Source of the DNA: an uncultured Gammaproteobacteria bacterium | Lineage (GTDB): Bacteria > Patescibacteriota > Microgenomatia > Curtissbacterales > GWA2-41-24 | Length of the DNA stretch: 64,000 nt | Assembly: GCA_964492425.1 (NCBI GenBank) | Contig: CAZBKB010000005.1 | Coordinates: 12,468 to 76,467, forward strand | Reading direction: 5' to 3' | Shown: piece after piece, positions 11,442-58,561 of the stretch | How positions within the stretch are numbered: the stretch's first letter is position 1 | Layout of the letters: each line of letters starts with the position of its first letter | Notes under the pieces: model-generated | Databases searched by the model: none | Seen by the model: the letters and a program-made list of their open reading frames with translations, nothing else | Told to the model about the DNA's origin: nothing | Translations under genes and position numbers: made by a program

Positions 11442-12562
11442 AAATAGGAATAGACATATCTCAAATTGTATACAAGACTGGAGTCTCAACGTATACAGAA
11501 AATTTAGTAAAAGCCCTCCTGAAAATAGATAAAAAAAACCAATATCTACTTTTTGGGACATCACTAAGGCAATACACTAATCTTAATAAATTTAAAAAAG
11601 AATTAAATGACACGAGCAAAGTGGATTTTAAAATATTCATGGCGCCAATCAGCTCTTTTGAGGTTTTATTTAATAAAATTCATATCTTTAGCATAAACAA
11701 ATTAATTGGCGATGTGGATGTTCTGCATACATCGGACTGGATAGAACCAAAAGTTATTTCAACGAAGACTAAAAAGATTACAACAATCCACGATATGGTT
11801 CCATTCCTTTTCCCCTCAACGATTCCGAAAAGAATTCTTAATAATCAACTGTGCAGAATGGAAATAGTAAAAAAAGAATCAAACATTATACTCACCCCAT
11901 CCAAAGCAAGCAAAGAAGACATTGTAAAATTTTTAGATTTTCCAGCGGAAAAAATTAAAGTTACACCAGAAGCTCCCGCAAGGGATTTTAAACCGCAACC
12001 AGAGGAAACAATTAATGAAGTATTAGCAAAATATAAAATAAAAAGACCATATATTTTATCTGTCAGCACCCAAGAACCACGTAAAAACATTCACAAATTA
12101 ATAGATGCTTTCGAAAATTTAGTAAAAGATAGAACGGATATCACACTAGTTTTAACTGGTAAAAAAGGTTGGGGTCAAGCGCTCGATGTTGTACCAAGCA
12201 CCATACAGACTGGCTTTGTCACGGAAAAAGAATTAATTGCACTTTATGCAGGGTGTAGAGTATTTGTTTATCCATCACTTTACGAGGGTTTCGGGCTACC
12301 TGTTCTTGAGGCGATGGCTTGTGGAGCACCGGTTGTCACATCAAATAATTCTGCAATGGCAGAAATCGCCGAGAATTCTGCCATTCTTGTCAACCCTAGA
12401 AGTGATGGCCAAATAAGAAAAGCGATAGAGTTGGTACTTGATCTTGATCCTGAAAATTACCAAAAGATGGTACGCGCAAGCCTGGACAAAGCGCGTCAAT
12501 ATACATGGGCAAAAACCGCGAAAGAAACCTTAAATATTTATGAAGAACTTGCAAGGAGTTAA
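11426..12562 (+). CDS. Glycosyltransferase family 4
   Basis: YPSLYEGFGLPVLEAMACGAPVVTSNNSAMAEIAENSAILVNP, a canonical GT4 C-terminal motif block. Confidence 0.8.
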   Translation: MGSAVKIGIDISQIVYKTGVSTYTENLVKALLKIDKKNQYLLFGTSLRQYTNLNKFKKELNDTSKVDFKIFMAPISSFEVLFNKIHIFSINKLIGDVDVLHTSDWIEPKVISTKTKKITTIHDMVPFLFPSTIPKRILNNQLCRMEIVKKESNIILTPSKASKEDIVKFLDFPAEKIKVTPEAPARDFKPQPEETINEVLAKYKIKRPYILSVSTQEPRKNIHKLIDAFENLVKDRTDITLVLTGKKGWGQALDVVPSTIQTGFVTEKELIALYAGCRVFVYPSLYEGFGLPVLEAMACGAPVVTSNNSAMAEIAENSAILVNPRSDGQIRKAIELVLDLDPENYQKMVRASLDKARQYTWAKTAKETLNIYEELARS

Positions 12563-21244: not shown

Positions 21245-22140
21245 AATTATCGATTGTCATTGTCTCCTATAACGTTCAAGAGCTTTTAGATAAATGTTTA
21301 AAATCCATATATATCGCTTCTAAAAATATCGACCATGAAATTTACGTTGTAGATAACAATTCCCAAGATGGAACAAAAGAGCTGATTATAAATAAACATC
21401 CGCGAGTGCGGTTAATTGCAAATACTCACAATATTGGTTTTTCAAAAGCTAATAACCAGGCAATCAAGTTTGCAAAAGGGGAATATGTCCTTATCTTAAA
21501 TCCGGACACTGTGCTCATGCCCGACACTCTTGTCAAAATGCTCAAGTTTATGGATCAAAAGGATGCAAAAGTAGCCATAGCAACATGTAAGATAGAGCTA
21601 CCCAGTGGCTTGCTCGATCGTGATTGCAGACGCAGTTTCCCAACTCCCGCAAGAGCCCTTACACACTTCACAGGACTTTCTAAAATATTCAGGGGAACAA
21701 AAATATTTGATTCCTACTATATGGGTTATATCTCGATTAACCAAGAAACTGAGGTTGACGCTTGTGTTGGTGCTTTTATGTTTATTAGGCGCAAAATCTT
21801 AAAGGAAGTAGGCAACTTTGATGAAGACTATTTTTTCTATGGTGAAGATTTGGATCTTTGTTATCGTATACGTCAACATAATTACAAAATTTTCTATACT
21901 CCAATTACCAAAATTATTCACCACAAAGGTGCGTCATCCGGCATCAAAAAACACTCAGCCGAATTATCTAAAGCACCTGAAGAGTCTAAAAAGAGGGCAA
22001 TTGTTGAATCAACACATGCAATGGAACTTTTTTATAAAAAACATTACAAAGGTAAATACCCCCTCTTTATTACGTTTGCAGTGATAATAGCGATTGAGAT
22101 TGTTAAAAATATAAGGCTTTTCAGGCATAATTTTTTATGA
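21241..22140 (+). CDS. Glycosyltransferase family 2
   Basis: LSIVIVSYNVQELL...YVVDNNSQDGT and LNPDTVL (DxD-like) motifs. ATGA overlap with the upstream gene. Confidence 0.75.
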   Translation: MKLSIVIVSYNVQELLDKCLKSIYIASKNIDHEIYVVDNNSQDGTKELIINKHPRVRLIANTHNIGFSKANNQAIKFAKGEYVLILNPDTVLMPDTLVKMLKFMDQKDAKVAIATCKIELPSGLLDRDCRRSFPTPARALTHFTGLSKIFRGTKIFDSYYMGYISINQETEVDACVGAFMFIRRKILKEVGNFDEDYFFYGEDLDLCYRIRQHNYKIFYTPITKIIHHKGASSGIKKHSAELSKAPEESKKRAIVESTHAMELFYKKHYKGKYPLFITFAVIIAIEIVKNIRLFRHNFL

Positions 22141-23237
22141 AGATTGGAATAGATGCAAGATTTGTGGGGCCCCAAGGAACAGGGCTAGGTAAATACACCG
22201 AAAAGCTAATCGAAAATCTTGAAAAAATCGATACAAGAAATCAATTTTATATCTTCCTGCGCCAAAGCAACTGGTCATTTCTAAAGTTGACAGGGGGAAA
22301 CTTTACAAAAGTTTTAGCAGACGTCCCCTGGTACTCCCTGGAAGAACAGATAAAAATGGCAGGGATTTATAAATCAAAACATTTAGATCTTCTGCATGTC
22401 CCCCACTTCAATGTTCCTATCCTTTACAACCTGGTGTTTATAGTTACAATACATGATTTAATACATCATAAATTTTCGCAGGAATCAACAACAACCAAAA
22501 ATCCGTTTATTTTCAAAATAAAAAGGTTTGCCTACAAAAGGATAATCACCCATGCTGTGACAAAATCCAAAAAAATATTTGTTCCTTCAAATTATGTTAA
22601 AGAAGAAATCATCAATAACTTTAACCTCGACGCTAAAAAAATTGTTGTAACTTATGAAGCTGCAGAAGAAGAATACTCACAAGGAACAAAATCAAAAGCT
22701 TCAAAATCAAACCAGATAATTTATGTAGGCAATACCTATCCTCATAAAAACATAGCGAAACTTCTGGAAGCTCTAAACATTTTAAAATCAGAAATTAAAA
22801 ATTTAAAATTGATCATCGTCTGTCCCCGGGATGTCTTTACAAATAGGCTGGCAAAAGAAATTACAGATAAGGGTTTAACCCAAGAAGTTGAAATTCTTCC
22901 TTATCAAAATGTAGATCAGCTAGTTAGAATTTTTGCAAAATCCAAGGCTTATATTTTTCCATCTCTGGAAGAAGGTTTCGGTATACCAGGTCTAAACGCT
23001 ATGGCCGCAGGCCTGCCAGTTATTGCATCAAATATTCCAACCTTAAAAGAAATCTACGAAAATGCGGCTATGTACTTTAATCCAAACGACCCAAAAGACA
23101 TTGCCGAAAAAATAAACCAGGTCATCGGCAGTTCAGATATCAGAAAAAGTTTGATCTTTGAAGGTGGGAAACAGGTAAAAAAATATTCATGGCTAAAAAT
23201 GACCAAAGAAACCCTTGCGGTTTACCGCTCAGTCTAA
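22137..23237 (+). CDS. Glycosyltransferase family 4
   Basis: FPSLEEGFGIPGLNAMAAGLPVIASNIPTLKEIYENAAMYFNP. Confidence 0.8.
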   Translation: MKIGIDARFVGPQGTGLGKYTEKLIENLEKIDTRNQFYIFLRQSNWSFLKLTGGNFTKVLADVPWYSLEEQIKMAGIYKSKHLDLLHVPHFNVPILYNLVFIVTIHDLIHHKFSQESTTTKNPFIFKIKRFAYKRIITHAVTKSKKIFVPSNYVKEEIINNFNLDAKKIVVTYEAAEEEYSQGTKSKASKSNQIIYVGNTYPHKNIAKLLEALNILKSEIKNLKLIIVCPRDVFTNRLAKEITDKGLTQEVEILPYQNVDQLVRIFAKSKAYIFPSLEEGFGIPGLNAMAAGLPVIASNIPTLKEIYENAAMYFNPNDPKDIAEKINQVIGSSDIRKSLIFEGGKQVKKYSWLKMTKETLAVYRSV

Positions 23238-23295
23238 TTTAACAAACACAGCTTTTCAATAGAAGAATGTTAGGACGTATAATCCCAACCTCAAG

Positions 23296-23460
23296 AAGAC
23301 AGCCCTCACATATGATCCTTCGACTTCGTTCAGAGCGACTGATTTCAATCTATTAGGTTTTTACTTTAGGCTGTGGAGATAGGATAATCAACATACTACT
23401 CCGACCAAATTTTAATGTCAATAATCAAAAAGTTGCAGACTAATCTATAACTTGTATAAT
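23296..23460 (+). repeat. Diverged copy (R0) of the cassette-junction module, including an outward promoter
   Basis: gatccttcgacttcgttcagagcgactgatttcaatcta ... tttaggctgtggagataggataatcaacatactac ... ttttaatgtcaataatcaaaaagttgcag aligns segment by segment with the R1/R3 modules (gatgacccttcaatttcattcagggtt ... tttgggctatggagataaggtgtttccactatagcac ... ttttctgtcaataatctaaaagttgacac). Confidence 0.5.
23432..23460 (+). promoter_or_regulatory. Candidate sigma70-like promoter with extended -10 (TTGCAG-17-TGTTATAAT)
   Basis: ttgcag at 23432-23437, a 17-nt spacer, then tgt+tataat at 23452-23460. This lies 17 nt upstream of the small ORF at 23478. Confidence 0.4.
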
Positions 23461-23477
23461 CTTTCATTAGCCCCGAT

Positions 23478-23639
23478 ATGACAGAGAGACAACAGCAACT
23501 AGCACGAATTTCTGAAACAAGAACACTATCAACTACAGATAGATTATCGCTCGCCTATTTAGCAAGACAAAATTTTGAGGAGGCAATTGAGATTGCAGCT
23601 CAAACCAAGGGAGGACATTCAAACAATTCTTGCAAGTGA
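23478..23639 (+). CDS. Small hypothetical ORF (53 aa), possibly a frameshifted remnant
   Basis: ATG 23478 to TGA 23639. A +1 frame continues as ILASDDEIAKQAVAYFGRV*, suggesting a decayed gene. No homology recognised. Confidence 0.2.
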   Translation: MTERQQQLARISETRTLSTTDRLSLAYLARQNFEEAIEIAAQTKGGHSNNSCK

Positions 23640-23709
23640 CGACGAAATTGCAAAGCAAGCAGTGGCATATTTTGGCCGAGTGTGAAAACAAAACTATCGG
23701 TGTGCCTTT

Positions 23710-24132
23710 TTAATTTGTATCGAGTGGGTATTGGCTTAAGTGCTTAACAAAGGGAAGATTTACAGCCTTAACAAATTTAGAGTCTGCAGTAAAAAGATCA
23801 CAATTATTTTCTTGAGCTAAGATTGCATATGAAGCATCGTAAACTGTAACCTTATGCTCTTTGGCAAATTTTAAACATTTGGGGAAAAAATCTGGAGTGG
23901 GATTAAATATCTCTATCTTGAAATTCACGAAAAGATTCCAAGCTGCACTTATATCTTTGAGCGTTAATTCAGCTTTAGAAGAAAGAACATTTGCAAGTTC
24001 ATACAAAAGGATGTCGGGAGCGATAACTTTTTGTTCACCTGCTAAAAACTTGTCCAGTAGTATCAAAGATACATGTCTTGTATCTTCTTCCCTTAGCCAT
24101 TTATAAATAATTGAAGTATCGGCTACTACCAT
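23710..24132 (-). CDS. vapC: PIN-domain ribonuclease toxin VapC
   Basis: MVVADTSIIYKWL (conserved Asp5), internal acidic residues and C-terminal FTADSKF. 140 aa. It overlaps the upstream antitoxin gene by 7 nt. Confidence 0.75.
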   Translation of the reverse strand: MVVADTSIIYKWLREEDTRHVSLILLDKFLAGEQKVIAPDILLYELANVLSSKAELTLKDISAAWNLFVNFKIEIFNPTPDFFPKCLKFAKEHKVTVYDASYAILAQENNCDLFTADSKFVKAVNLPFVKHLSQYPLDTN

Positions 24133-24383
24133 TTTCCTTCATATCTCATCTCTCTTAATGATTGAACTATGTCAAAATCTTTTAGCTTTCTTTTCAATAC
24201 TCTTGCGACCTTACGACGATTTGCATGAATTTGATTAACTTGGGTTTGAGAGCGAGTTTTATCTTCGGTGCGTATTTTTTCCCTAACTACTGCAGATAAG
24301 CTTTGACGTTTTTTGGCAGCTTCAGCTTTCAGTCTCAAGTAATCCTCCTCAGAAATTCTTATATTAGTAGTAACATAATTCAT
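24126..24383 (-). CDS. vapB: Ribbon-helix-helix type antitoxin (VapB-like)
   Basis: 85 aa. N-terminal beta-strand TNIRISEEDYLRLKAEAAKK (RHH pattern). It lies directly upstream of the PIN gene and overlaps it. Confidence 0.55.
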   Translation of the reverse strand: MNYVTTNIRISEEDYLRLKAEAAKKRQSLSAVVREKIRTEDKTRSQTQVNQIHANRRKVARVLKRKLKDFDIVQSLREMRYEGKW

Positions 24384-24384
24384 A

Positions 24385-24417
24385 ATACAATTGTATCATT
24401 GTATTGATATTTGTCAA
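24385..24417 (-). promoter_or_regulatory. vapBC promoter with palindromic operator
   Basis: On the minus strand, TTGACA (plus 24412-24417) is followed by a 16-nt spacer and TACAAT (plus 24390-24395). A perfect 12-bp palindrome atacaattgtat (24385-24396) overlaps the -10 and abuts the vapB ATG at 24383, so the transcript would be leaderless. Confidence 0.45.
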
Positions 24418-24453
24418 TTCTTCAACTAACACATATAATCTCAGTAATCAATA

Positions 24454-24660
24454 ATGAAGACTACCCTAGTGCATGATGACCCTTCGATAGACTCAGGGCA
24501 GTTGCTCAATCTCGAAGGTCTTTTTATTCTGAGCGAAGCAAAAATCAGAGACGAAGTTCTCTATTTGGGCTATGGAGATAAGGTGTTTCCACTATAGCAC
24601 TTGCAACTTTTCTGTCAATGCTACAAATTGACATCAAACCTGATGATATGTAATATGTGA
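24454..24660 (+). repeat. Cassette-junction module R1: remnant of the GT 5' end plus a conserved 114-bp block plus promoter
   Basis: It begins atgaagactaccctagtgcatgatgac (M K T T L V H D D, matching MKIALVHDDF of the GT at 28348). Positions 24506-24619 are 114/114 identical to 27547-27660. Confidence 0.7.
24628..24656 (+). promoter_or_regulatory. Near-consensus sigma70-like promoter driving cassette gene 1 (TTGACA-17-TAATAT)
   Basis: ttgaca at 24628-24633, a 17-nt spacer, then taatat at 24651-24656. The ATG at 24665 is only 8 nt downstream of the -10, so the mRNA would be leaderless or have a very short leader. Confidence 0.5.
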
Positions 24661-24664
24661 AACG

Positions 24665-25507
24665 ATGGTTAGAGAAAGAGACTACAAGCCAATAGAAATT
24701 CCGCAAACTGAGCCTCTTGTTATTCTCAGAAACCAGAAATTTTTCCCATTTTCAAATCTTGAATTACCTGAGGAAACAATAGGACATTTTGATTTTGCAA
24801 GCCAGGAGTTTCAGCTTCAAGAAGAAGATGGCATCACTACGGGTAGATTTCTGTATCAAGATGTGATGAGCAATGGTAACACGGCAATGTGGAACTTCCC
24901 TTTTCTTGCCGAAAAGTATTACACCTTAGGCTCTACAGAAGACGATCTAAAGCAATATACTGAGACATATCCTGACTCACCGCATAGGAGAATAATGTTT
25001 AAAGTTGCATTTGACCTTCCGAGGCCTATGGATCCAGAAAGTGAGTTCCGTAAGACGACTAGAATCAGAGTTGAAAATGGACAAACTGGAAATGTGTTTT
25101 ACGCAGTAGAGGCAAGGGCACAAGGTGGATATGACCGAACAAGATCCCCAAAAGATGGGCACTACGCCATACTTTACGATAGCTTCTACTACAAAGGAGA
25201 ACAGTGGGATGATCGTTTGAATAAACATGCTCACTTAGATATTCCAGAAGAAAGATGGCCTGAGATACATCAGCAGGTAGCAGATTATGAAGAAGATAAC
25301 TCCAAGCCTTACCCACAAGAGCTTGCAGACGCACATCGAAGAGTAAGAGAAGAGGATGATAGACGCTCTTATTTAATGCCATTTCGCTTGTCTATCATCA
25401 CGAAACCAGAAGTGGCAAGAGGTATTGCACTAACCATTGAGCAGGTTCCTATGGGTTCTGTAGATCTAAGTGTCAACACACCAGACCAAGTGTTGCACGG
25501 GCACTAA
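24665..25507 (+). CDS. Hypothetical protein (280 aa), cassette gene 1, no recognisable domain
   Basis: Clean ORF with visibly higher G+C than the flanking genes. Acidic and aromatic-rich. Flanked by junction repeats R1 and R2. Confidence 0.5.
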   Translation: MVRERDYKPIEIPQTEPLVILRNQKFFPFSNLELPEETIGHFDFASQEFQLQEEDGITTGRFLYQDVMSNGNTAMWNFPFLAEKYYTLGSTEDDLKQYTETYPDSPHRRIMFKVAFDLPRPMDPESEFRKTTRIRVENGQTGNVFYAVEARAQGGYDRTRSPKDGHYAILYDSFYYKGEQWDDRLNKHAHLDIPEERWPEIHQQVADYEEDNSKPYPQELADAHRRVREEDDRRSYLMPFRLSIITKPEVARGIALTIEQVPMGSVDLSVNTPDQVLHGH

Positions 25508-25694
25508 TCAATTAACCTTAAAATCATCCTCAGCTAAAAAATTGTTAAAATCAGATAGTGAAAATTGCACTAGTACACGATGACTTCAATCTCGAAGGTT
25601 TTTTGTTTGGGGCGTGTTGATAAGACAATTCCATAGTACCACTTGCAAGTTTTAAGTCAAGAAATCAAAATGATGCAAGTTAAAATAGAAGTCT
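25508..25694 (+). repeat. Cassette-junction module R2 (3' repeat plus GT 5' remnant plus diverged 5' module)
   Basis: 25513-25589 matches 28303-28379 (native GT upstream plus first codons) at 75/77. It then carries caatctcgaaggtttttt... and a diverged ccatagtaccacttgcaagtttt. Confidence 0.65.
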
Positions 25695-26873
25695 ATGCCA
25701 GAAAGATTTGAAAGACGAGTCACAAGACCAGTTCAAGTAGGAGAGATAACTATTGGTGGGGATAACCCCATTGCTGTGCAATCAATGGTAACTAGGGAAA
25801 CTCAGGATATTCAAGGAGTAACGGAACAAATCAAACAACTCAACCTCGCAGGTGCTGAAATTGTTAGAGTAACGACACCTACAATTCAAGACGCAGAGTC
25901 GCTTGCTGAAATAAAAGTTGAACTTAAAAGACGATATAAAGATGTACCACTTGTTGCAGATGTTCATCATCAAGGCACAAACATTGCAGTAGAGGCTTCA
26001 AAACATGTTGAGAAAGTTCGCATAAACCCTGGGCTTTTTGTTTACCATAAGAGAACATCCCAGGAAGAATATACACACAATGAGATTGATGAACAAAGGA
26101 ATGAAATTGACTCTGCCTTATCTCCACTTATAAGTGCATGTAGAGAAAGAGGTGTTGCCCTGAGGGTTGGAGTAAATCATGGCAGCCTTGCAGAAAGACT
26201 TACTGTCATGTATGGCGACACACCAGAAGGAATGGTTCAGTCCGCAATGGAATATCTAAAAATATGCGAGGGCTATGGCTTCAAAGATGTAGTGGTTTCG
26301 TTAAAAGCTAGTAGAGCTCCCACCATGATTGCAGCCAATAGGCTAATGGTTGAGCGAATGGATGAGGAGAATATGAACTACCCCATCCATTTAGGTGTTA
26401 CAGAAGCTGGCAAAGACCAATACGCAAGGATTAAAAGCACTTACGGAATTGCAACTCTACTCTCAGAAGGTGTTGGGGATACTATTCGGGTTTCCTTAGC
26501 AGAAGACCCAGTTAAAGAGTTATCCGTTTGTTATGACATCCTTCAAGCAGGAGGCCTTAGGCGTACCAAATCTGAACCAATAGCTTGTCCAGGTTGTGGA
26601 AGAACTAAGTTTGACCTTGATACCGTCACTGATGACATATTTGGTGCAACTGAGCATTTAAAAGGTTTAAGTATTGCTGTGATGGGGTGCATTGTAAACG
26701 GGCCTGGGGAAATGGCAGATGCTGATTATGGCTATGTTGGTCTGGGTGGTGGCAAAATAGCTCTATACAGAGGAAAAGAAGTAATCAGGACTGTCCAGCA
26801 AGAAGAAGCAAGAGATTCTTTAATTGCACTTATAAAAGAAGATGGAAAATGGATAAACCCACCTTCTAATTAA
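25695..26873 (+). CDS. ispG: 4-hydroxy-3-methylbut-2-enyl diphosphate synthase IspG/GcpE
   Basis: Diagnostic IspG blocks: PIAVQSMV, AEIVRVT, VPLVADVHH, RINPG, VGVNHGSL, HLGVTEAG, LSEGVGDTIRVSL, and the [4Fe-4S] Cys ligands in ACPGCGR and GCIVNGPGE. Collinear with E. coli IspG. Confidence 0.85.
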   Translation: MPERFERRVTRPVQVGEITIGGDNPIAVQSMVTRETQDIQGVTEQIKQLNLAGAEIVRVTTPTIQDAESLAEIKVELKRRYKDVPLVADVHHQGTNIAVEASKHVEKVRINPGLFVYHKRTSQEEYTHNEIDEQRNEIDSALSPLISACRERGVALRVGVNHGSLAERLTVMYGDTPEGMVQSAMEYLKICEGYGFKDVVVSLKASRAPTMIAANRLMVERMDEENMNYPIHLGVTEAGKDQYARIKSTYGIATLLSEGVGDTIRVSLAEDPVKELSVCYDILQAGGLRRTKSEPIACPGCGRTKFDLDTVTDDIFGATEHLKGLSIAVMGCIVNGPGEMADADYGYVGLGGGKIALYRGKEVIRTVQQEEARDSLIALIKEDGKWINPPSN

Positions 26874-26905
26874 CCCTAAAATCTTCCTCAGCTAAAAATT
26901 GCGTG
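26871..26905 (+). repeat. Partial copy of the 3' junction repeat after ispG
   Basis: taaccctaaaatcttcctcagctaaaaattgcg matches the start of the 28303/25513 repeat (2 mismatches) and then diverges. Confidence 0.4.
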
Positions 26906-26918
26906 CTAAAATGCCTGA

Positions 26919-27239
26919 GTGGACACATCGTTTGTCAGAAGAAAAGTTGAAAGCGGAGAATATGACCTTTCAAGCCATGCTCACCGAGAAAGACAAGAAG
27001 AACAAATTACAGTAGCAGAAATAGAGCAGGCTCTCCTTACAGGTGATATAATTGAAAAGTATCCAAAAGACGAGAGAGGCGAAAGCTGTTTAGTTGCAGC
27101 AAAAACAGAAAATAAACCAATGCATATAGTGTGTGGAAAACGAGACAGCAGGTTATTAATAGTTACAGTCTACAGACCAAAACTGCCTACTTGGGAAAAT
27201 TATAAACAAAGAACAAAGGAGTTGAAAAGCCGTGTCTAA
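26919..27239 (+). CDS. DUF4258-like small protein (putative toxin-like partner)
   Basis: 106 aa. SSHAHRERQEEQITVAEIEQALLTGDIIEKYP...ESCLV.G...RPMHIVCG...IVTVYRP resembles the DUF4258 family. GTG start. It overlaps the downstream Zn-finger gene by 8 nt. Confidence 0.45.
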   Translation: MDTSFVRRKVESGEYDLSSHAHRERQEEQITVAEIEQALLTGDIIEKYPKDERGESCLVAAKTENKPMHIVCGKRDSRLLIVTVYRPKLPTWENYKQRTKELKSRV

Positions 27240-27471
27240 TTGTTACTTTTGCAAAGGAAAAACCGAAATTAGAAATGTGAACGTGGACTTCAGATGGAAG
27301 GATAAGCTTTTCGTCTTTAAAAGTGTTCCCGTAGAGGTTTGTATCCAATGCGGAGAAAAGTACTACAGTGCAGAAATTTCCAAAAAACTAGATGATTTTG
27401 TCAAAAAACAATCAGAAGCAAAGATCAGTCCACAAAATACCATCCAAGTCCCCGTTTTCAATTGGCAATAA
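27232..27471 (+). CDS. YgiT-type (MqsA N-terminal-like) zinc-finger protein
   Basis: 79 aa. CYFCKG ...(32)... CIQCGEKYY forms a four-Cys zinc ribbon, as in YgiT-type antitoxin-like proteins that commonly pair with DUF4258. Confidence 0.5.
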   Translation: MSNCYFCKGKTEIRNVNVDFRWKDKLFVFKSVPVEVCIQCGEKYYSAEISKKLDDFVKKQSEAKISPQNTIQVPVFNWQ

Positions 27472-27489
27472 ATCTGTTGCTATAATCTT

Positions 27490-27711
27490 CTCATGCGGAT
27501 TGCGTTAGTACACGATGACCCTTCAATTTCATTCAGGGTTATAAATTCAATCTCGAAGGTCTTTTTATTCTGAGCGAAGCAAAAATCAGAGACGAAGTTC
27601 TCTATTTGGGCTATGGAGATAAGGTGTTTCCACTATAGCACTTGCAACTTTTCTGTCAATAATCTAAAAGTTGACACGTAACTAATCCCAGGTATAGAAT
27701 CAGCCTGTTTT
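27490..27711 (+). repeat. Cassette-junction module R3 (GT 5' remnant plus conserved 114-bp block plus promoter)
   Basis: atgcggattgcgttagtacacgatgac (M R I A L V H D D). 27547-27660 is identical to 24506-24619. Confidence 0.7.
27671..27700 (+). promoter_or_regulatory. Sigma70-like promoter driving cassette gene 3 (TTGACA-18-TAGAAT)
   Basis: ttgaca at 27671-27676 and tagaat at 27695-27700. The ATG at 27712 follows with no Shine-Dalgarno sequence. Confidence 0.45.
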
Positions 27712-28305
27712 ATGACAGTAGAGCAACAGCACGAAATTAGAGGCTGGTTGGATGTTATTGCATCTATTCGACAAAAGAGAGCAGAGGCATCACGAGCTGC
27801 TTATTCCTTAAAAGATGTTAGCAGAAAAGATTACGATGGTTTAGATGTGGAGCGATTTGGAGATATTACCACAGGTTTATCAATGGTACTAAAACCAGAG
27901 GAAATAGATGAAGCCCCTCTTGAAATACAAATGGTCCTGAACGATTTAGGTTTAACCTCCGAAGACCAAATTCAAGCCCAGCTAATATTGAAACAATCAG
28001 ACGGCTCACGTGGTTATGATTTTGTACTTAAGCCTACTGAATTAGTAGGAGGGAGAATGGGAATACTTTTAGACAGCAATGGCAGTCACGCAGTTTTAGG
28101 TGGTCCAAGATCAAGGAGCTTTGATGGCATACATCAAACTGTTGAAACATATGAAGGTAAATCAGCAGAAATCTACGAGAACTATAGATTTGGTATGGGA
28201 GATGCTCAAAATCCAAACTTAGTTGAAATTCTATATTCGTGTGTTAAATGGTTCGCAACCTTAGCAGAAAATAGACGAAAGACTCCACCAGAACCTATTA
28301 GTTAA
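27712..28305 (+). CDS. Hypothetical protein (197 aa), cassette gene 3, no recognisable domain
   Basis: Clean ORF with higher G+C than the host genes. Flanked by R3 and the native junction copy. Confidence 0.45.
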   Translation: MTVEQQHEIRGWLDVIASIRQKRAEASRAAYSLKDVSRKDYDGLDVERFGDITTGLSMVLKPEEIDEAPLEIQMVLNDLGLTSEDQIQAQLILKQSDGSRGYDFVLKPTELVGGRMGILLDSNGSHAVLGGPRSRSFDGIHQTVETYEGKSAEIYENYRFGMGDAQNPNLVEILYSCVKWFATLAENRRKTPPEPIS

Positions 28306-28400
28306 CCCTAAAATCATCCTCAGCTAAAAAATTGTTAAAATCAGATAGTGAAAATTGCACTAGTACATGATGACTTCACTCAGGCTGGCGGGGCAGAAAG
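28303..28400 (+). repeat. Native target copy: upstream region plus first about 17 codons of the GT4 gene, shared by all junction modules
   Basis: taaccctaaaatcatcctcagctaaaaaattgttaaaatcagataGTGaaaattgcactagtacatgatgacttcactcaggctggcggggcag. Copies or remnants lie at 25513, 26871, 24454 and 27500. Confidence 0.6.
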
Positions 28401-29472
28401 TCTGTTTGCCACAATTGCTGCCCTTTATCCGAATGCGCCGATTTACACTTCCCTAGTCAATTGGCGCAAACTGCCCGCATCAATCGATAGAAACAGGATC
28501 CGACCCTCATTTATGCAAAAAATCCCATTTGCCGCAAGCTTTTTTAAACTCCTTTTGCCGCTTTACCCGCTAGCCTTTGAAAGTTTCGACTTTGACAACT
28601 ACGACCTTGTCATTTCTTCGACAACTCGTTTTGCCAAATCGATAATCACAAAACCCAAAACTTGTCATATTTCTTATTTAAATAGCACACCTAGATTTTT
28701 GTGGGAAGAGGACAAAAAAAATGTCTATTTGCCAAAAATTTTGCTGTTTCTCTTAAGCCCCTTTTTTCGTTGGTTAAAACGCTGGGACTTATCATCAGCC
28801 CAAAGAGTTGATTATTTTCTTGCCAATTCCCAAAACGTAAGTCAAAAAATCCTCAAAATATACAGACGAAAAAATAAAGTTATTTATCCTTTTGCCGACA
28901 CCACTTTCTTTACTCCCGATAGAATCCATAATTGGAAACTTAAAAGCAAGAATTATTACCTTATTGTTACCAGACTTGTTAAATGGAAAAAAATAGACAT
29001 CGCAATTGAGGCGGTGAATGATATAGGTGCAAATTTAATAATTATCGGTGACGGGCCTGACAAGGGGAGGCTGGAGGGAATAGCGGTCAGGGACCAGCGG
29101 TCAGGAACCAGAGATCAGGTTACTTTTATCGGCAAGATAACACGAGAGGAGCTAAAAAGCTGTTACCAGAACTGCAGGGCGCTTATTGTGACACAAGAAG
29201 AGGATTTTGGTATTGCAACTGTCGAGGCTCAAGCTTGCGGTACTCCGGTTATAGCTTATGGGAAAGGTGGCACAGTCGAGATCATCACAGACAAAAAAAC
29301 GGGTGTATTCTTTAGTTCTCAAACCATGTCTTCGCTAAAAGATGCAATTTCAACGTCTTCTAGGTTAAAATATGATAAGTTAGCTATAAGACACAATGCT
29401 CTTCGTTTCACAAAAACTAACTTTGAAAAAATATTTAAGGAAATCGTAAGACAATATGCCAAATCAGCCTGA
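28348..29472 (+). CDS. Glycosyltransferase family 4 (target gene of the cassette array)
   Basis: GTG start with no Shine-Dalgarno sequence. The N-terminus is MKIALVHDDFTQAGGAESL. GT4 C-terminal block VTQEEDFGIATVEAQACGTPVIAYGKGGTVEIITDKKTGVFF. Confidence 0.8.
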   Translation: MKIALVHDDFTQAGGAESLFATIAALYPNAPIYTSLVNWRKLPASIDRNRIRPSFMQKIPFAASFFKLLLPLYPLAFESFDFDNYDLVISSTTRFAKSIITKPKTCHISYLNSTPRFLWEEDKKNVYLPKILLFLLSPFFRWLKRWDLSSAQRVDYFLANSQNVSQKILKIYRRKNKVIYPFADTTFFTPDRIHNWKLKSKNYYLIVTRLVKWKKIDIAIEAVNDIGANLIIIGDGPDKGRLEGIAVRDQRSGTRDQVTFIGKITREELKSCYQNCRALIVTQEEDFGIATVEAQACGTPVIAYGKGGTVEIITDKKTGVFFSSQTMSSLKDAISTSSRLKYDKLAIRHNALRFTKTNFEKIFKEIVRQYAKSA

Positions 29473-54121: not shown

Positions 54122-54800
54122 AAAAGTCTTTTTTTTAACCCTCGTCTTAATCCCACTCACATTAGGTTTGTATGTACTCAAAAGCTTTACAAAACTAAAA
54201 ACGCTCGAAATTAAAGGTGGAAATACTTGTATAAACCAATCAGAAGTTTATAAAAAAAATAAAATTCTCAATCAGAACCTATTCATATTGTCAGAGGAGC
54301 TACTTGAGGAGAAAATAAAAGAGGAATTTCCTTGCACGACAGCTGTAAAAGTTACAAAAGACTTTCCTTCCACCATAATTGTTAATGTGCAAACTTCCGA
54401 GGTTATAGTTGAGATATCAGACAAGCCCTTCAGTCTCACAAGTGAAGGTTTAGTTACTAAAAGCCAAAGTGGCAATAACCTCCCAAAACTTTTTTTGCCA
54501 CAAGAGGTAACTGTCGAAGAAAATAAGAAAATCGGAAGCGAAAAAGTCCTATTCGCCTTAAGGCTTCTAAAAGGTCTTTTAAAATCGGATTTTACTCCGA
54601 CCCAAGTAAGATTTATAGACGACATAGATATTATTGTCTATAGCCAGACAGAAGCCAAAGCAATTTTTACAACGACCAAAGACCCCAATGTTCAGGTTGA
54701 CTCTTTACAGTCTGTCTTGGCAAAAGCTAAAATAGATGCGTCAAAAATCTCACAAATTGATCTGCGCTTTAATAAGCCCGTGATTACTTACAATAAATAA
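54114..54800 (+). CDS. ftsQ: Cell division protein FtsQ/DivIB-like (POTRA)
   Basis: Single N-terminal TM, then a POTRA-like segment LKTLEIKGGN. It lies between murG and ftsA. Confidence 0.5.
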   Translation: MLKKVFFLTLVLIPLTLGLYVLKSFTKLKTLEIKGGNTCINQSEVYKKNKILNQNLFILSEELLEEKIKEEFPCTTAVKVTKDFPSTIIVNVQTSEVIVEISDKPFSLTSEGLVTKSQSGNNLPKLFLPQEVTVEENKKIGSEKVLFALRLLKGLLKSDFTPTQVRFIDDIDIIVYSQTEAKAIFTTTKDPNVQVDSLQSVLAKAKIDASKISQIDLRFNKPVITYNK

Positions 54801-56077
54801 TGTCTAAAGATAAAGTAATAGTTGGCATAGATGTTGGCTCCACGAAAATTACGACCATTATCGCATCTATCCAAGAAGATGAAACTCCAAATATCATCGG
54901 TGTATCTTCCTCTTCCGCTGGGGGTCTGAGAAAAGGTCAAGTTGTAGATATCGATGAAGCAGTAGCTAGCATAACGCAGTCGCTCGAAAGTGCAGAAAGG
55001 ATGGCAGGTTACTCAGCAGGCTCAGCTTTTGTTTCGGTTGACGGTGTACACATAGAATCACAAAACTCCAAAGGAGTTGTAGCAATTTCGAATCCCCAAG
55101 GGGAAATATCAGCAGAAGACATTACTCGTGTAATTGAAGCAGCGCGTGCAATTTCACTACCGTCTTCAAAAGAAATATTACATGTTATCCCAAGGTATTT
55201 TATTGTTGATTCCCAAAGCGGCATTAAAGACCCAATTGGCATGAACGGCGTGCGCTTGGAAGTAGAAACACACATTGTCACTGGCGCTACAACTGCTCTC
55301 AGAAACATAGCCAAATGCGTTTCTCAAGTAGGCGTAAATGTGGAAGGTATGGTTTTTTCGGGACTGGCTTCATCGTATTCGGTTCTGTCAGACACGGAAC
55401 GTGAACTTGGAGTTGTGTTGGTGGATTTTGGTGGAGGCACAACTGATGTTGCCATATTCATAGACGGTGCACCTGCACATTGCGCTGCTCTGCCAGTAGG
55501 AGCCAGAAATGTCACCAATGATTTGGCAATAGGTCTCAGGATCTCACTCGAAAGTGCAGAAAAGATTAAACTGGCGCTTTCCAAACCTCCCAGAACAGCA
55601 GTAGAACCAGATGAAAACGGTAAGGCTCATGATAAAAAAGAGTCAGATAGCCTGGATATTTCCGGACTTTCAATAGAAGAAGACCTGAAGTTAGTTTCCA
55701 AAAAAACATTAACAGACGGTATTATCAAACCAAGACTTCGAGAAATTATCAACATGGTGAAATTGGAATTACAAAAATCTGGTTACGCAGGACTTACCCC
55801 CTCCGGAGTAGTTTTAACAGGTGGTGGAGCGCAGACCGCTAACTTTGTGGAAATTGCCAGACAAGAGCTTGGCATGCCGGTACGCCTTGGTGTCCCGCAA
55901 GGGGCCAAAGGCCTGATAGACGAGATATCTACACCAGCCTATGCTGCCGGCTTAGGGCTTATTATTTACGGATCAAGTTTCAGCCAGGAAAATGTACGTT
56001 TGCCACTTGTTGGTAGAATAGAAATTAAAGGTGTTATGGCCAAAGGCATAAGTCTTATAAAATCACTTCTCCCATGA
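54800..56077 (+). CDS. ftsA: Cell division protein FtsA
   Basis: Actin-fold phosphate-1 motif VGIDVGSTKITT, followed by VVDFGGGTTDVAIF and GVVLTGGGA. Confidence 0.85.
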   Translation: MSKDKVIVGIDVGSTKITTIIASIQEDETPNIIGVSSSSAGGLRKGQVVDIDEAVASITQSLESAERMAGYSAGSAFVSVDGVHIESQNSKGVVAISNPQGEISAEDITRVIEAARAISLPSSKEILHVIPRYFIVDSQSGIKDPIGMNGVRLEVETHIVTGATTALRNIAKCVSQVGVNVEGMVFSGLASSYSVLSDTERELGVVLVDFGGGTTDVAIFIDGAPAHCAALPVGARNVTNDLAIGLRISLESAEKIKLALSKPPRTAVEPDENGKAHDKKESDSLDISGLSIEEDLKLVSKKTLTDGIIKPRLREIINMVKLELQKSGYAGLTPSGVVLTGGGAQTANFVEIARQELGMPVRLGVPQGAKGLIDEISTPAYAAGLGLIIYGSSFSQENVRLPLVGRIEIKGVMAKGISLIKSLLP

Positions 56078-56148
56078 GCTAAAACTCTTGCAAATAAACA
56101 GCCCCTGTGTTAAATTGTGCAGGCTTTTAGCACTAACTTCATGATTCC

Positions 56149-57252
56149 ATGTTAATTAAACCCGATGTCAACAGATTCGCAAAAATAAAAGTGCTTGGAA
56201 TCGGCGGCGGTGGAACAAATGCCCTAAATTCCATGATTACTCAATCACAAATTCAAGGTGTAGATTTCGTCGCTATCAACACTGATCAACAGCATTTACT
56301 TGCATGTCACGCTCAGACAAAAGTGCAGATAGGTGATGGCTTAACCAAAGGCCTAGGTGCTGGTGCGAATCCAGAATTAGGTAAGAAGGCGGCCGAAGAG
56401 TCCCTTGAGCGAATAAAAGATGTTGTAACCGGAGCTGACATGGTTTTTTTAACATATGGTTCCGGTGGTGGAACAGGTACCGGAGCTGGCCCGGTAATTG
56501 CCGAAATGGCAAAAAAACTTGGTATTCTTACAGTTGCAGTAGTTACCAAACCATTTGGTTTCGAAGGCACAAGAAGAATGATAGTCGCAGACGAAGGTAT
56601 AGATGCACTCAGAGACAAGGTCGATACTCTTATCGTAATCCCCAACCAAAAACTTTTGGAAGTTGTTGACAAAAATGTGTCGCTTCTCGAAGCATTCAAG
56701 CTTGCAGATTCAGTACTTTCACAAGGAGTACAGGGAATCTCCGATATTATAGTAATGCCTGGTTTAATCAACGTAGATTTTGCAGATGTTAAGGCGATCA
56801 TGATCAATGCCGGTTCGACTTTAATGGGCGTCGGCACGGCATCCGGTGAAAACAGGGCAGCGGCAGCGGCTAGATCGGCTATCGCATCACCACTTCTTGA
56901 TGCATCAATAGATGGTGCCAGAGGAGTACTTTTTAATATCACTGGCGGATCAGACATGACCATGAGTGAAGTTGATGAAGCAGCCAAAGTTATCACGACC
57001 CAGGCAGACCCGGATGCGCAGATAATTTTTGGTGCAGCAATAGACGAAAAGTTAATTGACCAGGTTAAGGTAACAGTTGTGGCAACAGGTTTCGACGAAA
57101 CTAGGAGAAAGTATGTACAGATTACACCTCCAGACCTTTCGATGATGCCACAAAGTCAACAATCAGACGACCAAATCGATAAGTCGCCTACTAACGGCCA
57201 GATAGATGATGACGAATTCGACGTTCCCACATTCCTGCGTCAGATAAGATAA
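56149..57252 (+). CDS. ftsZ: Cell division GTPase FtsZ
   Basis: [15 protein letters not shown] and the tubulin signature [12 protein letters not shown]. The C-terminal tail ends [14 protein letters not shown]. Confidence 0.9.
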
Positions 57253-57421: not shown

Positions 57422-58561
57422 ATTCCTCGCAAGAATCCTTCTCAGCCGCAAGTTGCTCCCCGAAAGGGAGCATGCATATTTCAGAAAAGGACTTCAAGTC
57501 TTTTATAACTGTAAAACAGAACTTGGCACCACAATCCGTGAGGCATTGTTTAAGTCGTCTCGGCATCATCAACAGGTGGTTTGCAGACAAAGACCTGAAC
57601 AAAGACAATGTCGAGAAGTTTTATATGGAGCTTAAAGCCAAAGGCTTAAAAAATAATTCTCTCAATACTTATCACACAACATTCAGTCAGATTAGAAATT
57701 ACTGCCTAGATAGAGGGCTTCCAGCCGATTTCTATAGCGGCTTTAAGGCATACAAGAAGACAAAACCGGACATACTTGTTTTTACCCCAGAAGAAATTGA
57801 AAAAATAATAAGCACAGAACTTACTTACGGAAAGTTTTACGGCAAAGATGTTTCTTTCTTAAACTTCAGGTACAGAACGCTCACTATGTTTCTTGCATAT
57901 ACAGGTTGCAGATATTCAGAAGCAGCAGACCTCCAGATAAAGCGGCTAGATTTGTCTGCTGGAAGGGCCATTTTTATAAATACTAAAACAAACGAAAATA
58001 GGCCTGCCTATATAACTGAACCGCTTAAATCAAATCTTATGCAACTAGTAGATGGTAGAACTCCAGATGAATTTGTTTTCAGAAACGCAGTCGAAAAGCA
58101 CATTCATGTCTCTGACTATAGTGCAGACCTGAAAAGGCGTGCTAGGACTGCTGGTGTTACCAAAAGAACATTTCCACATAACTTCAGGCACACTTATATA
58201 ACACTTATGCTCGAGGCGGAAGTGCCAATAACAGAAGTGGCATCACTTGTTGGTCACAAGGACATCCAAACCACATACGATACATATATGCATCTCGCGG
58301 ATAGGACTTTGCAGAAAGCTGCCATGAGGCACCCGCTAGTTAGGAGAAATGTAAACCCAGCAGAAATAGTAAAAACTGTCAAAGAAACCCTTGAAAGTCT
58401 TCACCTAGAGAACGACGCAAGGTTTACCTTCAGCCTTTCAGAAACATCGAACGGATTGCAGTTTTCTCTTCAAACAAAGAACGAATAGGGGACTGAATCA
58501 GTTATAATTCAATCCCCTTTCTCAGCTCGCAAGCTACTCCGCCTGAATTCCTCGCAAGAAT
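57422..58561 (+). mobile_element. Integrase module bounded by a perfect 15-bp direct repeat (attcctcgcaagaat)
   Basis: The direct repeat lies at 57422-57436 and 58547-58561. Adjacent imperfect repeats ccttctcagccgcaagttgctcc (57437-57459) and ctttctcagctcgcaagctactcc (58517-58540) are arranged in swapped order. The module lies immediately after ftsZ at the start of a defense island. Confidence 0.4.
57472..58488 (+). CDS. Tyrosine site-specific recombinase/integrase (phage integrase family)
   Basis: N-terminal SAM-like core-binding domain. The catalytic domain has R (TGCRYSE), HNFRHTYIT, VGHKDIQTTYDTYMH (H-x-x-R ... Y). Higher G+C than its surroundings. Confidence 0.8.
   Translation: MHISEKDFKSFITVKQNLAPQSVRHCLSRLGIINRWFADKDLNKDNVEKFYMELKAKGLKNNSLNTYHTTFSQIRNYCLDRGLPADFYSGFKAYKKTKPDILVFTPEEIEKIISTELTYGKFYGKDVSFLNFRYRTLTMFLAYTGCRYSEAADLQIKRLDLSAGRAIFINTKTNENRPAYITEPLKSNLMQLVDGRTPDEFVFRNAVEKHIHVSDYSADLKRRARTAGVTKRTFPHNFRHTYITLMLEAEVPITEVASLVGHKDIQTTYDTYMHLADRTLQKAAMRHPLVRRNVNPAEIVKTVKETLESLHLENDARFTFSLSETSNGLQFSLQTKNE

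Follow-up and report, generated by a model that had tools for sequence, protein, structure and literature searches.

Two uncharacterised proteins as single cargo genes in a tandem cassette array at the 5′ end of a glycosyltransferase gene of Curtissbacteria

Bacteria of the candidate phyla radiation (CPR, Patescibacteria) have very small genomes and few cultured members, and mobile elements are believed to be scarce in them. To our knowledge, how they acquire strain-specific genes is poorly understood. Integrons, especially the sedentary chromosomal ones, are ordered arrays of small cassettes that contain open reading frames (ORFs) without relatives (ORFans) and interspersed toxin-antitoxin (TA) cassettes, all at one site beside a tyrosine recombinase gene. 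The pdif modules and integrative mobile elements exploiting Xer (IMEX) are small and integrase-free, use the host XerC/D recombinase, often carry TA genes, and stand in tandem with short recombination sites. Tycheposons are tyrosine-recombinase elements that occupy one conserved site, with partial copies of the target as direct repeats (Hackl et al., bioRxiv 10.1101/2020.12.28.424599). Later arrivals push older ones deeper, remnants accumulate, the cargo is both metabolic and defensive, and the hosts have small, streamlined genomes with few other mobile elements (bioRxiv 10.1101/2020.12.28.424599). Here we describe a locus on a stretch of 64,000 nucleotides from a member of the Curtissbacteria (the window: positions 12,468 to 76,467 of contig CAZBKB010000005.1, assembly GCA_964492425.1), in which small cassettes stand in tandem in front of a glycosyltransferase gene, GT374. 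Two of the encoded proteins, ORF280 and ORF197, are our main subject.

We consider, with a probability of about 0.7, that ORF280 and ORF197 are each the only cargo gene of an integrase-free cassette, and that the two cassettes belong to a four-unit array (about 23293-28374) which arose from successive site-specific insertions within the first ten codons of GT374, with a Xer-like recombinase acting in trans. We observed directly the layout of the repeats in the array, a precise insertion point shared between genomes, alleles with and without an insert, integrases encoded at this point in related genomes, and cargo shared horizontally. The tandem array of four cassettes occupies 23238-28347, between the genes GT366 and GT374, and its features are the following.

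22137-23237, plus strand: GT366, a GT4 glycosyltransferase (Pfam Glycos_transf_1, 1.9e-31), left flank of the hotspot
23293-23477, plus strand: junction J0, a decayed GT374 5′ core, then a left module (nhmmer match 23298-23460, E 1.7e-37), then the ORF53 promoter
23478-23639, plus strand: ORF53, cargo of cassette 0
23710-24132, minus strand: VapC PIN toxin (Pfam PIN, 2e-14), cassette 0
24126-24383, minus strand: RHH antitoxin (Pfam RHH_1, 0.0046), cassette 0
24411-24480, plus strand: outward promoter TTGTCA-17-TATAAT and pseudo-5′ end of GT374 (24454-24480, ATGAAGACTACCCTAGTGCATGATGAC, encoding MKTTLVHDD)
24481-24664, plus strand: left module J1, long variant, with the 114-nt repeat (24506-24619), the ORF280 promoter (24628-24656) and a predicted minus-strand extended −10 promoter (24618-24591)
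24665-25507, plus strand: ORF280, 280 aa, ATG start, sole cargo gene of a 1104-nt cassette (24481-25584)
25513-25587, plus strand: right module after ORF280, made of the 28-mer TAACCTTAAAATCATCCTCAGCTAAAAA, the extended −10 box TGTTAAAAT, a 6-nt spacer and a core copy (25558-25587, GTGAAAATTGCACTAGTACACGATGACTTC)
25588-25694, plus strand: left module J2, short variant, with a predicted minus-strand promoter (25660-25633)
25695-26873, plus strand: IspG/GcpE (Pfam GcpE, 4e-120), cargo of a 1935-nt cassette
26871-26918, plus strand: half right module, inside the 1935-nt cassette and ahead of the TA pair
26919-27239, plus strand: DUF4258 toxin (Pfam DUF4258, 1e-21)
27232-27471, plus strand: MqsA-like zinc-finger antitoxin (Pfam MqsA_antitoxin, 1.3e-3)
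27481-27519, plus strand: outward −10 box TATAAT (27481-27486), a 6-nt spacer and a core copy (27493-27519, ATGCGGATTGCGTTAGTACACGATGAC)
27520-27711, plus strand: left module J4, long variant, with the 114-nt repeat (27547-27660), the ORF197 promoter (27671-27700) and a predicted minus-strand promoter (27659-27632)
27712-28305, plus strand: ORF197, 197 aa, ATG start, sole cargo gene of an 855-nt cassette (27520-28374)
28303-28347, plus strand: right module with the outward promoter predicted to drive GT374 now; its −10 box TAAAAT (28336-28341) ends 6 nt ahead of the GTG start of GT374
28348-29472, plus strand: GT374, a GT4 glycosyltransferase (Pfam Glycos_transf_1, 7.5e-29), the target gene, with the N-terminus MKIALVHDD

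The four units extend from about 23293 to 24480 (ORF53 and VapBC), from 24481 to 25584 (ORF280, 1104 nt), from 25585 to 27519 (IspG with the DUF4258/MqsA-like pair, 1935 nt) and from 27520 to 28374 (ORF197, 855 nt), and the four copies of the D2 repeat family are spaced by 1104, 1935 and 855 nt. A preliminary description, made from the letters alone, had reported two clean ORFs that each fill a full cassette unit behind a strong promoter of their own, beside TA modules. We recovered both ORFs at exactly the same coordinates, and the units are delimited by the D2 copies and the 114-nt repeat. Near-consensus predicted promoters end 8 and 11 nt ahead of the two ATG codons, and the TA neighbours are the PIN/RHH pair (23710-24383, minus strand) and the DUF4258/MqsA-like pair (26919-27471).

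The repeated core corresponds to the first 27-30 nt of GT374 (ATG/GTG AAR ATT GCN YTN GTN CAY GAT GAC TTC, encoding MKIALVHDDF). Copies are found at 24454-24480, 25558-25587, 27493-27519 and, as the authentic start, 28348-28377, and there is a decayed copy near 23293. Upstream of each core copy lies a right module, consisting of the 28-mer TAACCCTAAAATCATCCTCAGCTAAAAA and an extended −10 box separated from the start codon by 6 nt. Downstream of each copy lies a left module of 110-190 nt with stop codons, a T-run and the strongly conserved block GATAAGACAATTnCACTATAGCACTTGCAACTTTTCTGTCAAT, which on the minus strand reads as an extended −10 promoter, TTGACA-16-TGnTATAGT (consensus match 11/12). 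The cassettes of ORF280 and ORF197 have the same long left module, and the 100% identity of their 114-nt repeats (24506-24619 and 27547-27660) suggests a common source or recent gene conversion. Within the 64-kb window, a 32-nt piece of this repeat, the right-module 28-mer and the 20-nt core were found nowhere else, with none expected by chance. A tRNA or tmRNA gene was not found in the window.

The same insertion point is present in related genomes. Orthologues of GT374 with 55-66% amino acid identity occur at the loci L004-L021 of Candidatus Curtissbacteria and assign the window to this CPR lineage, and GT366 orthologues flank the variable interval in L006, L008, L009, L012-L014, L016, L018 and L019. 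L013 has nothing in the interval, the GT366 stop codon being next to the GT374 start codon, and L024 has almost nothing. In L005, L006, L008, L009, L011, L012, L014, L016, L018 and L019 the interval is filled by 1.5-9.6 kb of DNA that is unrelated from one locus to another, and in L010 and L017 it is longer than 10 kb. The insertion point is always behind codon 9-10 of GT374, and the pseudo-cores of occupied loci all end in GAYGAY(TTC). At the left junction of L014, the GT366 stop is followed by the first 27 nt of GT374 and then by the left module, with the insertion point right after GATGAC, which is the product expected if an empty allele of the L013 type took an insertion after codon 9-10. 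The cargo thus sits at an insertion hotspot, as the preliminary description had proposed, with one insertion point and with empty and occupied alleles across the Curtissbacteria. No earlier description of this locus was found in the literature on CPR integrons and islands and on Curtissbacteria.

The modules are confined to the same surroundings. Among genome and metagenome contigs, 20 unique copies of the left module lie in the interval upstream of GT374 or, where a flank is visible, adjoin a GT366 or GT374 orthologue. Profile matches were obtained in L008, L009 (two), L011, L014, L016 and L021 (two), all on the plus strand and within the interval. A metagenome-wide scan with a 42-nt degenerate module pattern returned 19 stretches, every visible flank of which was a GT366 or GT374 orthologue, and the pattern was absent from IMG/VR. 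Of the 13 occupied loci that have no adjoining integrase, 11 show a −10 box whose end lies 6-8 nt ahead of the GT374 start codon. Since GT374 of the empty allele abuts the GT366 stop and the occupied loci have this −10 box, insertions bring a replacement promoter and start. Cassettes with their own promoter are also seen at other loci. In the window, L004-L021, L030 and L031, hotspot genes and their neighbours typically have a −10 box 6-8 nt upstream and no Shine-Dalgarno sequence, which suggests that leaderless expression may be widespread in these Curtissbacteria.

Among described systems, tycheposons are the closest analogue. A single conserved site, direct repeats that are copies of the target, inward displacement, remnants, mixed cargo and a host with a small, streamlined genome are common to both. 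On the other hand, tycheposons insert at 3′ ends of tRNA or tmRNA genes and the present cassettes at the 5′ end of a protein-coding GT4 gene, and consequently each unit must rebuild that gene with its own promoter, start codon and nine further codons. The present units are also small (0.85-1.9 kb, one to three genes), contain a conserved non-coding left module with a leftward promoter, and reside in a CPR host.

In the mechanism that we propose, each cassette would be composed of four parts. The left module (110-190 nt) would supply stops for the orphaned GT374 start, a T-run and the leftward extended −10 promoter. Next would come the cassette's own sigma-70-type promoter, with its −10 box 6-11 nt before the cargo start and no Shine-Dalgarno sequence, an arrangement that suggests a leaderless or near-leaderless mRNA. 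The cargo, at times with a TA pair after it, would be followed by the right module, which would provide an outward promoter, a fresh start codon and codons 2-10 of GT374. As each insertion brings a fresh promoter and core copy, the 27-30-nt core would be duplicated, and GT374 and the downstream operon would stay expressed. The recombinase would be a Xer-like tyrosine integrase supplied in trans, of the type found beside the site in four relatives. We infer the recombination chemistry, the action in trans and the activity of the promoters.

Several further observations were made on the modules. A leftward promoter of the form TTGACA-16/17-(TGn)TAnnnT is present in every left module (24591-24618, 25633-25660, 27632-27659 and 23393-23421). 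In its minus-strand −10 box the TA...T positions are kept in 19 of the 20 unique copies and the middle positions vary. Conservation appears concentrated in promoter-like elements, a pattern as would be expected for a working promoter. A leftward transcript would be antisense to the GT374 pseudo-start and the outward promoter, and would read into leftward TA operons (vapBC). Part of the 114-nt stretch, about 45 nt with two small hairpins, is an optional insert that recurs in L016, L033, L034 and L039. A sub-element of about 18 nt, CCTTCGATNGACTCAGG, lies between core and module in the window (24481-24505), L011, L032 and L034, and is reversed and inside the core in L039 (around 819-900). A short ORF that starts from each pseudo-core (MKIALVHDDFNLEGFLFG...) was examined as a peptide gene; it is conserved in short-variant modules and frame-shifted in long variants, and was therefore taken as a remnant. 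The isoprenoid-pathway enzyme IspG/GcpE is carried as cargo too, and shares its 1935-nt unit with the DUF4258/MqsA-like TA pair. The half right module is predicted to drive this pair, and the order of right module and then TA genes recurs in L021 and L037.

The cargo of different loci was then compared, and closely similar genes were found in distinct genomes.

L008 versus L021: retropepsin-like protease / DUF5678 pair, 96-97% amino acid identity
L014 versus L016: glycerophosphotransferase, 86% amino acid identity
window, L011 and L021: DUF4258/MqsA pair, 79-92% amino acid identity
L008 versus L011: NUDIX protein, 75% amino acid identity

In the same genome pairs GT374 is 54-64% identical in amino acids and the flanks are about 69% identical in nucleotides. 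With cargo 75-97% identical and flanks far less similar, we conclude that cassettes move horizontally between species. The retropepsin-like aspartyl protease and DUF5678 genes are encoded as pairs on the minus strand beside the core (L008 7972-8561 and 5200-5788; L021 4290-4942; L009 9309-9791), and look like an uncharacterised addiction (TA-like) module. GT374 of L008 and L021 is only 54% identical despite their 96-97% identical pairs.

These data also bear on the possibility that no dedicated recombinase is involved, and that the locus is a hypervariable surface-glycan cluster whose modules are duplicated and reshuffled by homologous recombination through the GT366/GT374 flanks and the modules. 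The hotspot does lie within a long glycan-biosynthesis operon (GT2 and GT4 genes, ManC, bacterial sugar transferase, DUF4012), part of the cargo is glycan-related (glycerophosphotransferase, epimerase, YfhO/PMT_2, HAD), the window array has no integrase, and the complete identity of the 114-nt repeat between J1 and J4 hints at gene conversion. However, homologous recombination alone does not make a direct 27-30-nt target duplication at every unit, and it leaves a nucleotide-precise insertion point unexplained between flanks that are only about 69% identical. Moreover, in four genomes tyrosine integrases lie exactly at this point and the GT374 N-terminus is replaced. We therefore regard this explanation as unlikely.

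The integrases in question belong to the Phage_integrase family and measure 337-341 aa; in L007, L010, L015 and L017 their genes lie directly upstream of GT374, on the opposite strand. In these loci GT374 begins MSYQPKVALVHDD, a distinct MSYQPK... end that takes the place of the usual N-terminus. The best PDB recombinase for the hotspot integrases is XerD (2e-16), with a chain labelled RaiA marginally better, and IntI4 matches at 8e-11 in the C-terminus only. In L008, L033, L035 and L036, remnants of the integrase-type gene end are present without an integrase and are followed by the left module, indicating that integrase elements and module-bearing cassettes use the same site. In L017, a reverse transcriptase (RT) fragment (38-595) adjoins a second tyrosine integrase (655-1629), both about 8-10 kb upstream of GT374; this second integrase is 36% identical to the one at the site. 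In the window itself a single tyrosine recombinase gene was found.

57472-58488, plus strand: tyrosine recombinase, the only one in the window (Pfam Phage_integrase, 2.1e-27), 29 kb from the array

This protein is 30% identical to the hotspot integrases (tblastn 5.5e-19) and could act in trans on the array. Its gene follows, as read from gene order, a cell-division cluster (FtsA/FtsZ-like, GC-rich genes at 54800-57252), and it is probably the chromosomal Xer recombinase. One may then ask whether the cassettes depend on Xer as IMEX elements and pdif modules do, and are moved by a host XerC/D-type recombinase such as this one. Small size, absence of an integrase, TA genes, tandem arrangement and short boundary sites are all as in pdif modules and IMEX arrays, the only tyrosine recombinase of the window is probably the chromosomal one, beside a putative cell-division cluster, and the hotspot integrases of relatives are themselves Xer-like. 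In contrast to pdif and IMEX sites, the 30-nt core ATGAAAATTGCACTAGTACATGATGACTTC lacks a dif-like dyad, with only about 4 of 11 arm positions complementary (by inspection, 11-nt arms and a 6-nt spacer). The target is the 5′ end of a gene and not a terminus site, and relatives have dedicated integrases at the site. Dependence on a host Xer system is therefore improbable, more so than homologous recombination.

A classical integron, in which IntI captures promoterless cassettes via attC hairpins, would likewise present a tandem array of mostly single-gene cassettes with TA cassettes and many ORFans, at one site that in the relatives lies beside an integrase. The junctions were examined for structures of this kind. 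Rfam gave no matches at E≤1 over 22500-29000 and none at gathering score over the whole window, RNAalifold found no consensus pairs in the 20 unique module copies, and junctions folded as single-stranded DNA were no more stable than shuffles (z +1.14 and +0.09). The junctions are thus neither attC sites nor riboswitch-like leaders. In addition, every cassette has its own promoter, the repeat is the 5′ end of the target gene, and the associated integrases are closer to XerD than to IntI4, with none in the window array. Lacking attC hairpins, an IntI-type integrase and promoterless cassettes, the locus effectively refutes the integron explanation. Insertion by a Xer-like integrase of the hotspot type, acting in trans, remains our preferred reading.

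We next turn to the two proteins themselves. Stop-to-stop ORFs of at least 197 aa number 53 in the window and 0.02 per shuffled window, and both ORF280 and ORF197 display the pattern of genuine window genes, in which GC content is higher at the first codon position than at the third (GC1>GC3). The preliminary description had considered both to be compositionally foreign. This holds weakly for ORF280, with a GC content of 0.42 (z +1.7) and the most atypical codon usage among 53 ORFs (z −2.4), but not for ORF197, whose composition is unremarkable against the same 53 window ORFs (GC z +0.8, codon z −0.9). The predicted ORF280 promoter is TTGACA-17-TAATAT (24628-24656, plus strand; consensus match 10/12; end 8 nt before the ATG), and that of ORF197 is TTGACA-18-TAGAAT (27671-27700, plus strand; 11/12; end 11 nt before the ATG). 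A Shine-Dalgarno sequence was found upstream of neither gene. Both proteins are acidic (isoelectric point about 5) and predicted to be soluble, with no hydrophobic or transmembrane segments.

Neither protein resembles a described family, in agreement with the earlier statement that they have no recognisable motifs. For ORF280 and ORF197 alike, Pfam gave no family at E≤0.1, PHROGs nothing below E=0.1 (best 0.14), PADLOC and NCBIfam no match at E≤1, PDB sequences no significant match, and 50,697 phage genome records (tblastn, INPHARED) no match. For ORF197, a scan of IMG/VR revealed no relative, nor did a word-indexed search of 5.8 billion clustered proteins, a search that leaves room for remote homologues. 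The word-indexed search with ORF280 returned itself alone. On the other hand, when 1.84 billion representatives were searched exhaustively with HMMER, two relatives of full length (35-38% identity) and three fragments were recovered, and a profile search added six further relatives of 264-292 aa. The family amounts to about 13 sequences (P0003, P0004, P0009-P0014 and the fragments P0005-P0007 among them). Its relatives align over the full length at 29-38% identity, and the motifs EPLxI, EEFFPF, GRFFF, FLPxRFYTL, EDDL, YPGxP, VTNHxT and PFxLAF are spread along the whole sequence. The dN/dS ratio (nonsynonymous to synonymous substitutions) between the copies of L030 and L031 is 0.19, and by this measure the family is under purifying selection. 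The family profile found no relative in PDB, single members had no match in Pfam, and no member has a family name, domain or structure. Judged from these searches, ORF280 is a member of a small uncharacterised family and ORF197 is an orphan. The preliminary description had put forward both as candidates for uncharacterised families; for ORF280 a small new family was indeed found, and for ORF197 no relative was detected.

The relatives of ORF280 lie on low-GC metagenome contigs, outside the GT374 hotspot and without junction modules. One adjoins a DUF4926/DUF6883 pair, and two have the promoter layout TTGACA-17-TATTAT-8-ATG, of the leaderless type like that of ORF280. Several apparent relationships were rejected. 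P0008 (3246 aa) is a spurious relative of ORF280, its score being the sum of weak matches between 40 C-terminal residues and 8 repeats, and reads as a eukaryotic receptor-type phosphatase made of repeated domains. ORF280 and ORF197 are not kin, their similarity being 32% identity across 66 aa with 23% gaps, and neither has kin among 113 ORFs from the variable intervals of related loci. ORF53 and ORF197 have just about 22 nt in common, at the gene start. A 197-aa neighbour of the ORF280 homologue in L030 is unrelated to ORF197.

As to function, the cargo of the hotspot gives some indication. Conflict-related cargo includes a complete Gabija system in L010 (5714-9944; GajA, 586 aa, 9e-156; GajB, 473 aa, 3e-127) directly beside the Xer-like integrase, the RT fragment in L017 and many TA-like pairs. 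Metabolic or envelope cargo includes IspG, HAD, NUDIX, histidine phosphatase, glycerophosphotransferase, ZIP, ACPS, PHP and epimerase. Domain-less proteins occur in other cassettes too, for example four in L009 and one in L021. From this context, ORF280 and ORF197 might be dispensable, strain-specific accessory proteins in conflict or host interaction (defence, counter-defence or addiction), a guess to which we give a low probability, well below that of the cassette reading. The preliminary description had pointed to phage-defence or anti-defence functions, and the context makes this idea a sensible starting assumption. Nothing at odds with an accessory role, such as assignment to a housekeeping family by profile search, was found. 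In isolation, the two are ordinary hypothetical proteins of a kind abundant in CPR genomes.

A number of points weigh against these interpretations. No recombinase lies between 22137 and 29472, nor any integrase in or beside the window array, and the link between integrases and modules is drawn from the remnant ends only. In the contig-level data no excised circle or empty allele of the window strain was seen, and it may be that the cassettes are fossil and no longer mobile. The promoters are consensus matches of the sigma-70 type and are predicted only. Metabolic and envelope cargo is about as abundant at the hotspot as conflict-related cargo, most of the recognisable cargo is not defensive, and no defence or phage family was recovered for either protein in PADLOC, PHROGs or phage genomes, nor for ORF197 in IMG/VR. 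Single-sequence AlphaFold2 models were unusable (predicted local distance difference test scores of 36 and 42), and the best Foldseek hit of the ORF197 model in PDB (E 0.7) is meaningless. Finally, the array left of 25187 (23238-25187) is present in a single assembly only.

This last point, together with the fact that contigs of other assemblies break at the junction repeats, could indicate an assembly artefact in which single cassettes of co-existing strains were concatenated via the repeats; in the same vein, ORF197, without a homologue in the word-indexed search, might not be a functional gene. Against this, independent assemblies of the same groundwater samples yielded four contigs that run collinearly with the window from 25187 on and cross J2 to J5. 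One of them, L002, was built by MEGAHIT with k=141, a k-mer longer than the exact repeats. L009, L021 and L042 likewise contain arrays of several cassettes. As for ORF197, its codon usage and its GC1>GC3 pattern are those of real genes, and its length is hardly ever reached in shuffled windows. An artefact, or a spurious ORF197, is accordingly very improbable, even more so than dependence on a host Xer system.

A wider interpretation can be offered, though as a speculation that we consider rather unlikely in its entirety. The GT374 hotspot would be a new cassette-capture platform, on which minimal one-gene cassettes are mobilised in trans by Xer-like integrases, exchanged between species, and rebuild the 5′ end of a gene in an essential operon. 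The left module and its leftward promoter would belong to the machinery of recombination or of regulation, and ORF280 and ORF197 would found CPR-specific families for defence, counter-defence or host interaction.

As read from the DNA, this precisely targeted and self-repairing cassette array would differ from known tandem islands in its target and in the design of its units. It provides a gene-capture site, resolved to the nucleotide and common to many Curtissbacteria, with empty and filled alleles, a defined core of 27-30 nt and candidate integrases. The locus displays movement of cassettes between species together with a built-in avoidance of polar effects on the target operon. Its cargo genes, including ORF280 and ORF197, are accessory by construction and predicted to be independently expressed, and are thus reasonable candidates for heterologous testing.

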